In this document: positions 1,082 to 2,542 of the stretch, in pieces
Layout of the letters: the number at the start of each line of letters is the position of its first letter
Position numbering within the stretch: position 1 is the first letter of the stretch
Assembly (NCBI GenBank): GCA_048882505.1
Contig: JBHLRO010000025.1
Span: forward strand, 1-32,000
Source of the DNA: Candidatus Thorarchaeota archaeon
Lineage (GTDB): Archaea > Asgardarchaeota > Heimdallarchaeia > Hodarchaeales > Hodarchaeaceae
Reading direction: 5' to 3'
Length of the DNA: 32,000 nucleotides
Made by a program: the position numbers and the translations under genes
The notes under the pieces: generated by a model
What the model saw: only the letters and a program-made list of their open reading frames with translations
Databases searched by the model: none
What the model was told of the DNA's origin: nothing

Positions 1082-2542
1082 TTACACATCAGGAATTTGA
1101 TCATCGGGAAGGGAAAATACCTTTGCTAGACTTATATTTACCTGAGAAGTGAAACTTTCATCAAAATAGCTGTCTCGAAAAGATTTTTCACTGGTTTTAA
1201 TCACATATTTCGCTAATTCATCGATAGATTTTCGTAGTTTTTGATCATCCCTAGTTGCCCATAGAAGGACTTGCAATTCTCCTCCAATATTCTTAAAAGG
1301 CTTTTTACTAATTAAAATCTTGTGTTTGCCTGCATCGAGGGATTTAAGCTCAGGAGACTTCGTTATCTCTGCTAATAAGGATTGAATGCCAACAAAAGCT
1401 CCTCCCGCAAGTAAAGTATCGACTTCGAACTCTTCCCCAGTAAAAGAGAAAGAATAGGGAGAGATTCCAGCGGTAGAAACTATTAAAAGATAGATAGGTT
1501 TTCCCTTGAAGAACAAACCTCTTACAAATAAGGTCACACCGATTGTGATAGGGATAACGATCAAACCGAATATAATGAGAACCTCGATTGGGAAAGGAGG
1601 AGCGGGGTTAATATTCGATAAATCTACACCGTTATTTTCGAAGATTTCAATTGATCCATCTTCACCACCGACAACCAAATCAAGGAACTTTTCATCCTGA
1701 CCGTCCAGATCGATTAGGAACGGCGTTAGTCGTTTACTTCGAAATTGAACAGATTTAAAGGGATTATTGGCATTTGAGATGACAACTTGATCCCAAAGCG
1801 GGAATTCTTCTGCCTCGCTTATTCCTCTATTGCGTAAATAGGCAAGCCCATCCTCCGCTGTTCCAACTACGAGATCAGGAAGATCTTCAGTTCCTCTCGG
1901 GTAAATCGCATTAGGGCTTGCAAAATCCCCTACAACGATCCCCTTGAAAACATCTGCATTTTCGACCCAATTAGGGACAGTTGGCGTTCCTTGATTAATA
2001 AAAGCGTTCAATCGGCCGTCTTGGTCTCCTACAACAATATCAACTAGGTCGTCTCCGTTAATATCTGCCGCCGTGGGCTTAGCATATCCCGATACATTCA
2101 GTTGAGAGGTATAAGTTTCATTTAAAGTCAGAGTGAGCCCAGTTCTCACCATTAAATGGAGAGATCCAGAAGCATCTCCAATGATCACATCCATTTGATC
2201 GTCGTTATTGAAATCGAGAAGAGCGGGAGCTGAATGAGCCCATTGCTCAACAAATACGCCTGTTTCCTCTGCTTCAAACTCGAAAGTTGTTAGATTTCCC
2301 CCTCCATTTTTTTGGTATAAAAGGGGCCCCGACTCTCTTCCGCTTATCAAATCGTAATTGGCATTGCTTTGAAAGTTTAATAACAAGGGGTGACTGTATC
2401 CGTTCACATTCTCGTACCCTTCCAGAGATAAGGCAACCCATAATCCCTCGGTTTGATTGGGTGAAGCTATAGTCGAGATTGTATTTAACATAAAGAAGGT
2501 AAAACAGACCGTTAGAATAATCCGTTGCTTATCTCGAGGCAT
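1082..2542 (-). CDS. FG-GAP/VCBS-repeat single-pass membrane protein with C-terminal longin-like cytoplasmic domain
   Basis: N-terminal signal peptide. Repeats PALLDFNNDDQMDVIIGDASG, PTAADINGDDLVDIVVGDQDG, PNAIYPRGTEDLPDLVVGTAEDG, PFLIDLDGQDEKFLDLVVGGEDG plus one degenerate first copy. TM at aa ~319-341. C-terminal YLLIVSTAGISPYSFSF...DTLLAGGAFVGIQSLLAEI...LKSLDAGKHKILI pattern is typical of Asgard longin domains. Confidence 0.8.
   Translation of the reverse strand: MPRDKQRIILTVCFTFFMLNTISTIASPNQTEGLWVALSLEGYENVNGYSHPLLLNFQSNANYDLISGRESGPLLYQKNGGGNLTTFEFEAEETGVFVEQWAHSAPALLDFNNDDQMDVIIGDASGSLHLMVRTGLTLTLNETYTSQLNVSGYAKPTAADINGDDLVDIVVGDQDGRLNAFINQGTPTVPNWVENADVFKGIVVGDFASPNAIYPRGTEDLPDLVVGTAEDGLAYLRNRGISEAEEFPLWDQVVISNANNPFKSVQFRSKRLTPFLIDLDGQDEKFLDLVVGGEDGSIEIFENNGVDLSNINPAPPFPIEVLIIFGLIVIPITIGVTLFVRGLFFKGKPIYLLIVSTAGISPYSFSFTGEEFEVDTLLAGGAFVGIQSLLAEITKSPELKSLDAGKHKILISKKPFKNIGGELQVLLWATRDDQKLRKSIDELAKYVIKTSEKSFRDSYFDESFTSQVNISLAKVFSLPDDQIPDV

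Follow-up and report, generated by a model that had tools for sequence, protein, structure and literature searches.

Organization of the locus

We analyzed a stretch of 32,000 nucleotides (hereafter, the window) of Candidatus Thorarchaeota archaeon (GenBank assembly GCA_048882505.1, contig JBHLRO010000025.1, positions 1 to 32,000 of the forward strand) with respect to a gene near its start encoding the protein P0001. This protein combines a signal-peptide-like N-terminus, an FG-GAP beta-propeller, a single predicted transmembrane helix and a C-terminal longin-type domain; together they form a new domain architecture, assembled from known modules and of narrow distribution. The open reading frame (ORF) begins with the first start codon after a stop. 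A divergent intergenic region of 317 nt lies upstream of the gene, with an A/T-rich, TATA-like box about 35-55 nt upstream of the ATG. A second gene, termed X, follows downstream. The features are compiled in Table 1.

Table 1. Features of the P0001 locus, with positions given in the window and residues (aa) in P0001
Feature	Position	Strand	Remarks
Gene X, 341 of ~370 codons	1..1023	-	cut by contig start; signal peptide, ~300-aa ectodomain, Thr/Ser-rich stalk
Spacer between receptor gene and gene X, 58 nt	1024..1081	-	orthologous gaps ~28-60 nt
Propeller-transmembrane-longin gene (P0001), 486 aa	1082..2542	-	stop codon included; uninterrupted ORF, full-length orthologues
Predicted cytoplasmic longin-type domain, aa 346-476	1115..1507	-	AlphaFold2 topology, hhalign
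Predicted single transmembrane helix, aa 319-341	1520..1588	-	followed by R-G-L-F-F-K-G-K
Predicted five-bladed FG-GAP beta-propeller, aa 34-313	1604..2443	-	blades ~aa 51-89, 105-141, 155-195, 209-253, 273-303
Ca-type loop, blade 5, D278...D288	1679..1711	-	2-residue insertion in P0001
Ca-type loop, blade 3, D160-I-N-G-D-D-L-V-D168	2039..2065	-	D160, D164 invariant
Ca-type loop, blade 2, D110-F-N-N-D-D-Q-M-D118	2189..2215	-	D110, D114, D118 invariant in orthologues
Signal-peptide-like N-terminus, aa 1-26	2465..2542	-	basic n-region, hydrophobic core, A-S-P

The ectodomain is predicted to be a closed five-bladed propeller

Pfam FG-GAP_3 matched P0001 with an E-value of 4.7e-11 and 43.6 bits (cut-off 26.9); FG-GAP, Beta-prop_BBS7 (24.4 bits, cut-off 27) and BBS2_Mid scored slightly under their Pfam cut-offs. 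All of the 11 full-length orthologues matched both FG-GAP models (Pfam PF13517 and PF01839), with best E-values of 3.5e-19 and 2.6e-15. Five repeats of the pattern P-x3-D-x-N/D-x-D-x3-D-x3-G-x3-G are anchored at P52, P106, P156, P210 and P274. A preliminary description of this DNA, made from the sequence alone, had counted four clear repeats and one degenerate one, and five motif copies do align; the degenerate loop is that of repeat 4, which is kept in several orthologues, and repeat 1 carries no acidic Ca-type loop. Conserved loop motifs are those of blades 2, 3 and 5; that of blade 5 shows the canonical form D-x-D/N-x-D/N-G-x-x-D in most orthologues. Calcium is bound by the DxDxDG-type motif of integrin blades (PMC3192720), and by analogy the loops of P0001 would bind it as well. 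Two to four of the five blades are strongly predicted to bear Ca-type loops.

Modeling of whole P0001 by AlphaFold2 from the single sequence yielded a predicted local distance difference test score (pLDDT) of 32. Instead, an alignment of 36 rows was used, comprising the full-length orthologues and tail fragments of paralogous families; the resulting model reached a mean pLDDT of 89.4 and a predicted TM-score of 0.72. Its propeller consists of 20 strands, arranged as five four-stranded blades with pLDDT >90, and the strand at residues 35-38, which includes the invariant W35, fills out the last blade as a 'velcro' closure.

A search with Foldseek, which responds to local blade shape and sequence, was carried out against the Protein Data Bank (PDB) using the whole model. 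It ranked FG-GAP propellers first at E-values of about 1e-6 to 1e-5, with ITFG2 of KICSTOR on top (E 1.4e-6), together with integrin alphaV, alpha4 and alpha5, PVL lectin, CRTAC1 and BBS proteins. Global TM-scores were poor (0.25-0.33), as expected for five blades superposed on seven. The best whole-domain structural matches, obtained by a VIA-align wide fold search, were five-bladed propellers. Furthermore, bacterial FG-GAP/VCBS clusters in the ESM Atlas matched at a root-mean-square deviation of 2.6-3.9 Å, and one FG-GAP cluster of 282 residues reached a TM-score of 0.80 by its own length. Five-bladed FG-GAP propellers probably exist elsewhere, likewise as predictions. The fold-search lists contained no solved five-bladed FG-GAP propeller, and among papers pairing 'five-bladed' with 'FG-GAP' in a literature search, none appeared, from the parts available, to concern such a propeller.

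Integrin-type propellers have seven blades, each with an FG-GAP/Cage motif (PMC3192720). The preliminary description had considered that five blades imply either oligomerization or a five-blade closure. The latter agrees with the 20-strand model and the five-bladed matches. The model thus confidently predicts that the P0001 ectodomain forms a closed five-bladed propeller, with oligomerization disfavored. Among solved structures, this blade type is known from seven-bladed integrin-type heads.

Membrane topology

Hydropathy analysis of P0001 revealed two peaks only. The N-terminal one (Kyte-Doolittle value 1.96 at residues 8-26) lies behind a basic n-region, in agreement with the signal peptide described before; a hydrophobic N-terminus is common to all orthologues, and a signal-peptide cleavage site is presumably present. 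The second peak, with a value of 2.78 at residues 322-340, coincides with a helix at residues 319-343 of the AlphaFold2 model; the position given before for the one transmembrane segment (about 1520-1588) is correct. Only about five residues separate the propeller from this helix.

The orientation was deduced from 11 orthologues. Here, the 15 residues preceding the helix contain 0-1 Lys/Arg (three in one orthologue) and the 15 following residues 2-4; N-x-S/T sequons number 0-7 in the ectodomain, with at least three in 10 of the 11 proteins, versus 0-1 in the tail. Additionally, a homologous tail comes right after the last helix in MFS proteins with 10-12 transmembrane segments, and the C-termini of MFS proteins are cytoplasmic. 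Because of the positive-inside pattern, the sequons and the tail position on MFS proteins, the propeller is placed outside and the longin domain inside. P0001 is therefore strongly predicted to be a type I membrane protein with an extracellular propeller and a cytoplasmic tail, the two domains lying on opposite sides of the membrane as the preliminary description had assumed.

A cytosolic role of the propeller in a GTPase-regulating complex, as suggested by the matches to ITFG2/KICSTOR and BBS proteins, was considered as well; it was rejected on account of the signal peptide, the sequons and the orientation of the transmembrane helix, which place the propeller outside.

The cytoplasmic tail is a predicted longin-type domain

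In the AlphaFold2 model, the tail forms a separate alpha/beta domain with pLDDT values of mostly 80-95, located as given in the preliminary description (about 1115-1498). DSSP assigned strands at residues 349-356 and 363-366, a helix at 376-394, strands at 401-404, 407-415 and 422-429, and helices at 434-457 and 462-475, which corresponds to the order β-β-α-β-β-β-α-α. Longin domains are ordered β1-β2-α1-β3-β4-β5-α2-α3, without an N-terminal helix and with two C-terminal ones, whereas Roadblock domains show the order α-β-β-α-β-β-β and bear a helix at the N-terminus and a single one at the C-terminus (PMC10933270). Apart from the transmembrane helix, no helix precedes β1 in the modeled P0001 tail, and two helices follow β5.

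The P0001 tail alone gave no match in Pfam and nothing meaningful against the PDB by phmmer. Further results are those for A2, a profile of 16 tails, and for individual family members. The best PDB match of A2 was TRAPP Trs23, weak (E 0.68) but correctly registered. Sub-threshold Pfam matches in members of the tail family were all of longin/roadblock type, namely Robl_LC7 (1.1e-4), Sybindin (0.0046) and Fuz_longin_1 (0.038); Atlas feature scores for the tail were 0.84-0.88 and serve as leads only. As a reference set, Pfam Fuz_longin_1 (PF19036) was run on 83 genomes of the class. It matched in 37 of these genomes, in 23 of them above the gathering cut-off, and 27 of the Asgard domains chosen with this model (21 above Pfam's cut-off) were aligned.

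Comparison of A2 with these 27 domains by hhalign gave a probability of 98.9% (E 1.5e-17, 114 columns), and the A2 hidden Markov model recovered 27/27 of them at E-values from 2.5e-20 to 5e-6. Against five separate, architecturally unrelated subsets of the reference, A2 scored 92.7-98.4% each; a profile built from receptor orthologues only reached 96.1% and 93.0% with two subsets. As negative controls in hhalign, the genome's own Roadblock proteins gave 0.4% and protein X 0.2%. The tail profile scored 5.4% with the genome's own Roadblock proteins; by helix order and profile score, the tail does not belong to Roadblock/LC7 (PF03259). Pfam Longin (PF13774) and Sybindin (PF04099) matched neither in this genome nor in any control genome and are hence uninformative. 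The profile scores and their controls thus group the tail with the Mon1/Fuzzy/HPS1-LD1 type of Asgard longin domains rather than with Roadblock. Predicted topology and profile-profile matches strongly predict a longin-type domain, as had been proposed; judged by the order of its strands and helices, the modeled fold is not a different one.

The longin domain is the most conserved part of P0001. Its β1-β5 core shows 50% mean pairwise identity and 21% invariant columns, compared with 40% and 12% for the propeller. Helix α1 (residues 376-394) is nearly invariant, with the sequence L-A-G-G-A-F-x-G-I...E-I-T.

Occurrence of the complete architecture

An exhaustive HMMER search with the tail only (residues 345-486) retrieved, besides fragments, six full-length proteins of 466-483 residues with the same order of parts, which align with P0001 from end to end at 32-38% identity. 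Their sources name the full-length relatives 'VCBS repeat-containing protein [Candidatus Heimdallarchaeota archaeon]' or 'hypothetical protein [Candidatus Kariarchaeaceae archaeon]'; tail relatives come from Hodarchaeales, Heimdallarchaeota, Thorarchaeota or Promethearchaeota records. The assumed Asgard origin of the DNA is sound, because the relatives carry Asgard names (Heimdallarchaeota, Kariarchaeaceae or Hodarchaeales).

When 301 genomes of the phylum were searched in six frames, the complete architecture was detected in eight, and none of these copies has internal stops. Carriers are the genome of the window, one more of the 20 genomes in its genus, and six of 11 genomes in one other family of the same class; this family comprised 11 genomes in the receptor search and 12 were listed in the search for gene X. 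The orthologues are 31-91% identical to P0001, the upper value being that of the same-genus orthologue, which has syntenic flanks. Conservation of the whole gene in these genomes means that it is neither a chance ORF nor the product of a chimeric assembly. Due to the narrow distribution (8/301), the module is no candidate for an ancestor of eukaryotic receptors.

Three genomes of one genus (g5; loci L096, L097 and L098) carry receptor orthologues that are just 35-57% identical and X proteins that are just 29-42% identical, and the genes flanking these loci differ among the genomes. The receptor-X module may evolve fast or move between sites.

Gene X is the constant neighbor of the receptor gene

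Gene X was found directly downstream of the receptor gene in every locus examined and is the sole neighbor conserved between genera. Among the 83 genomes of the class, it is present in exactly the eight that carry the receptor and in none of the other 75. Both genes are probably co-transcribed. Among public sequencing runs, none of RNA was listed as containing this DNA.

Protein X matched nothing in Pfam, NCBIfam (including the archaeosortase-signal model), the PDB or the Atlas. Complete orthologues end in P-F/L-E followed by a hydrophobic and a basic part; a sorting signal would be one reading of this end, based on resemblance only. Invariant His, Asp and Glu residues were found at H129, H132, E179, D191, D203 and H217, and these could bind a metal.

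Prediction of a complex between the propeller (residues 27-316) and the X ectodomain resulted in a score of 0.54 (runs 0.58, 0.34 and 0.54), compared with 0.00 for the best of three controls; contact agreement between runs was at least 96% and partner pLDDT at least 80. The score mark applied is passed by 58 of 80 solved complexes and two of 110 mismatched pairs, and passing scores up to 0.60 include only seven of the 80 solved complexes together with both passing mismatches. Hence, the prediction gives weak support, modestly reinforcing a receptor-X link already likely from genomics, and is not proof of it. Taken with the genomic data, receptor and X are strongly predicted to constitute a fixed two-gene module in which X is a surface-anchored protein.

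The last 45 codons of X also occur at the starts of two other contigs of the same genome (C73:3-137 and C74:3-137), which suggests that the assembly forks shortly downstream of X, owing to a repeat or to strain variants. Elsewhere in the window, three ORFs encoding 157-237 residues, at 6038-6511 (+), 6594-7307 (-) and 7597-8304 (+), remained without a match in Pfam; of these, the first and the second are also conserved in a genome of the same genus (G280).

The same tail is found on other membrane proteins

Searching a public collection with A2 revealed 94 longer proteins, and in all of them the domain is located at the extreme C-terminus. Most are 'MFS transporters' of about 550 residues; another set consists of unannotated multi-helix proteins of about 390 residues. 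The genome of the window contains 23 tail matches, 12 of them behind the last helix of membrane proteins (P0001, three of the MFS type, some six with seven helices and two others) and 11 in soluble proteins, where the domain lies at or near the N-terminus. In this lineage, many membrane proteins thus carry the tail as a generic module, and P0001 belongs to a broader family of membrane-tethered longin domains, most of which lack annotation. Neither this nor the constant neighbor gene X was part of the preliminary description.

The three MFS-type transporters with a longin tail comprise 559-609 residues (C13:60811-62490, C13:65672-67360 and C1:178312-180141; loci L074-L076), and two of their genes lie 3 kb apart on one contig (C13). 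Proteins of 370-400 residues with about seven predicted helices and a longin tail are encoded at C7:10142-11314, C10:8451-9647, C19:20739-21932, C1:271411-272547 and C3:36811-37917 (loci L077-L079, L084 and L090); they look like receptor-type 7TM-longin proteins and have no match in Pfam.

A 222-residue fragment from another metagenome, P0024, consists of part of an immunoglobulin-like ectodomain, one transmembrane segment and the same longin tail. Its tail gave a sub-threshold match to Robl_LC7 (E 3e-4, 20.9 bits, cut-off 23), in keeping with the distant kinship known between longin and Roadblock folds, and one to Fuz_longin_1 (E 0.098). From this architecture it follows that single-pass, 'receptor-like' versions exist with at least two kinds of ectodomain. 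In P0023 (356 residues), the tail is located near the N-terminus and is followed by about 160 residues with a faint hint of a helix-turn-helix. An odd combination was found at C3:3414-4490 (-) (locus L093:1012-2088), where a protein of 359 residues starts with a histone fold (PF00808, E 2e-8) and the stretch behind this fold is a weak match to the longin-tail profile (E 8.8e-5).

Other genomes of the class contain nine loci (L034, L036, L038, L043, L044, L047, L049, L058 and L060) with frames of 322-690 residues, most of them 670-690, which end in a longin domain; several start at a contig end. These domains passed the Fuz_longin_1 cut-off or missed it by at most about 1 bit and scored about 60 bits with the tail profile.

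Extensive domain shuffling of Asgard longin and roadblock proteins, including fusions to two-component modules, has been described (Liu et al., bioRxiv 10.1101/2020.10.19.343400); the portion of that preprint available to us does not mention a propeller-longin fusion. A literature search returned no paper containing both 'Asgard' and 'FG-GAP'.

Possible function of the receptor-X module

Asgard archaea possess dozens of small GTPases and longin/roadblock proteins, and eukaryotes use the longin fold to dock small GTPases. The genome of the window contains 51 Ras-family and 12 Roadblock matches as candidate partners. With moderate confidence, we propose that P0001 is a type I propeller-longin receptor that acts together with X, binds a ligand outside the cell and offers its tail as a GTPase docking platform. 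Propeller and X would form a heteromeric surface complex binding an external ligand; matrix, a glycan or a protein on the surface of a partner cell could serve as such. The tail would act like the longin domains in eukaryotic TRAPP, Mon1-Ccz1 and SNARE systems, as a docking platform for one of the many small GTPases of the organism, probably once it has paired with another longin domain or a roadblock domain; going by analogy from all well-studied longin systems, such a domain and a small GTPase are the likeliest partners. GTPase-controlled membrane processes would thereby be coupled to the surface complex, through its state or its position. As MFS transporters and seven-helix proteins bear the same tail, it would wire membrane proteins in general to one cytoplasmic partner system. 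Each of these functional steps is one that we infer.

Several findings weigh against this proposal. Neither a GTPase, nor a roadblock, nor a second longin gene is linked to the receptor gene, whose only conserved neighbor is X. A Ras-family gene is located within 10 kb of five of the 23 longin-tail loci, roughly the rate expected by chance (about 0.2), and none lies near the receptor gene. The direct coupling to GTPase signaling or trafficking assumed in the preliminary description found no support from gene linkage. Longin domains also have roles unrelated to GTPases, e.g. in SNARE regulation and as cores of coats. The occurrence is patchy and narrow (eight of 301 genomes), which speaks against a core role in the cell. 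Furthermore, direct matches of the P0001 tail itself in Pfam and the PDB are absent or insignificant, the fold searches (PDB Foldseek, VIA-align wide and ESM Atlas) used the whole 486-residue model, so that the propeller filled every list, and the complex prediction is a weak pass from shallow alignments of 11 and 8 rows.

Two soluble Fuz_longin_1-like genes, both with sub-threshold Pfam matches, were observed near genes for Ras-like GTPases, at C13:55754-57052 (-) with a gap of 28 nt and at C9:62615-64479 (+) at a distance of about 640 nt; they are candidate longin-GTPase pairs.

Three other explanations have to be weighed. That the fusion merely reflects an artefact of assembly or gene calling, or a decaying gene without function, is extremely improbable. 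It is true that the contig starts inside the neighbor gene X and that the end of X also appears on two other contigs, but the same uninterrupted architecture recurs in at least eight genomes at 31-91% identity and free of internal stops, conservation differs by domain, and the DNA is present in sequencing runs of three studies; judged by the conserved full-length orthologues, an artefact is already contradicted. Rather improbable, too, is an extracellular enzyme-like or glycan-handling device, in which a lectin-like or polysaccharide-acting propeller is helped by X and the tail is a stabilizing or dimerizing anchor that has no partner downstream. Most five-bladed propellers of the PDB are glycoside hydrolases, PVL and Agrocybe lectin are close Foldseek matches among the FG-GAP propellers, and the invariant residues of X named above could bind a metal. 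Identity to glycoside hydrolase families, however, is 5-13% and no profile of a catalytic family matched, and therefore the shared blade number shows shape only; moreover, conservation is higher in the longin core than in the ectodomain, and a passive anchor would not be expected to show this.

A stronger contender, although we still regard it as less than likely, is that the longin tail serves as a sorting, localization or assembly tag and not as a signal transducer, the propeller and X being a plain adhesin or lectin. The tail would then bring membrane proteins to a common machinery (coat-like, ESCRT or cytoskeletal) or cluster them by tail-tail pairing. This would fit the presence of the same tail on at least four unrelated membrane modules, with 12 membrane-bound copies in the genome and 94 longer proteins in the database, and the nearly invariant helix α1, which points to one shared interface. 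In eukaryotes, too, adaptor and coat complexes have cores formed by longin domains, and these domains pair with each other (PMC10933270). No partner of any kind has been identified for such a tag, however, and on present data it is indistinguishable from a GTPase docking platform; the two are not exclusive of each other. Since no GTPase gene is linked and proximity is at chance level, a tag and a passive anchor both stay viable.

A bolder version of the proposed GTPase-docking receptor seems unlikely to us. In Heimdall-group Asgard archaea, propeller and X would represent an integrin-like device of two subunits working outside-in, in which a ligand bound by the five-bladed, calcium-dependent head alters the pairing of the tail, and the tail then recruits or activates a Ras/Rab/Arf-like GTPase. 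If true, this device would be a prokaryotic example of receptor-to-small-GTPase signaling and part of a wider system of transporters and seven-helix receptors sharing a longin output module. All parts of what the preliminary description had observed were confirmed; its interpretation is partly supported, and signaling is unproven. Longin domains fused to a surface propeller, to transporters and to seven-helix proteins provide a testable entry point into what feeds Asgard GTPase networks, and the tail, as a small soluble domain, is suited to expression and to screening against the GTPases of the organism.

Comparison with known systems

The propeller of P0001 shares with the integrin alpha head (PF01839, PF13517) FG-GAP blades with DxDxDG-type calcium loops in a type I protein with one transmembrane segment, and the heads of integrin alphaV, alpha4 and alpha5 were its best solved Foldseek matches by blade type (E about 1e-5). 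Integrin alpha pairs with a second subunit, and P0001 possibly does likewise with the co-encoded X, although this parallel is weak. However, integrin alpha has seven blades, whereas P0001 has five repeats in five blades and reaches TM-scores of only 0.25-0.29 with integrin heads. Thigh and calf legs are present in integrin alpha and missing in P0001, where about five residues connect propeller and helix, and the short cytoplasmic tail of integrins is replaced by a globular longin domain. Integrin beta contains a vWA-like betaI domain; X shows no integrin-beta or vWA signature and no match in Pfam or NCBIfam. The term 'integrin-alpha-like' of the preliminary description is thus appropriate at the level of the repeat; it does not extend to the number of blades, the legs or a beta-like partner. 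FG-GAP-type blades are also found in ITFG2 (KICSTOR) and BBS2/BBS7, which are cytosolic seven-bladed propellers in GTPase-regulating complexes. As the propeller of P0001 is predicted to be extracellular, this resemblance concerns the repeat rather than the role in the cell.

With respect to the tail, the first longin domain of Mon1, Fuzzy and HPS1 (PF19036) and TRAPP Bet5/Trs23 (Sybindin) show the same β-β-α-β-β-β-α-α order; the P0001 tail profile is related to Asgard domains passing the Fuz_longin_1 threshold and weakly matches Trs23. These proteins are soluble tri-longin or TRAPP subunits, whereas P0001 has one longin domain joined to an integral membrane protein. In the longin SNAREs VAMP7, Sec22b and Ykt6, a cytoplasm-facing longin domain is held at the membrane by one transmembrane helix, as predicted for P0001. 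There, the longin domain is N-terminal and the anchor is at the tail; P0001 has the reversed order, no SNARE heptad between domain and helix, and a large ectodomain. Also related are the Asgard MFS-longin and seven-helix-longin fusions, in which a tail homologous to that of P0001 (E 1e-18 to 1e-30 with A2) always directly follows the last helix. They occur in Heimdall-, Hod-, Thor- and Prometheo-archaeal records and are annotated as 'MFS transporter' or 'hypothetical'. These fusions are multi-pass proteins lacking a folded ectodomain, whereas P0001 is single-pass and bears a propeller, unlike any other member in its genome, and it alone has the conserved partner X.

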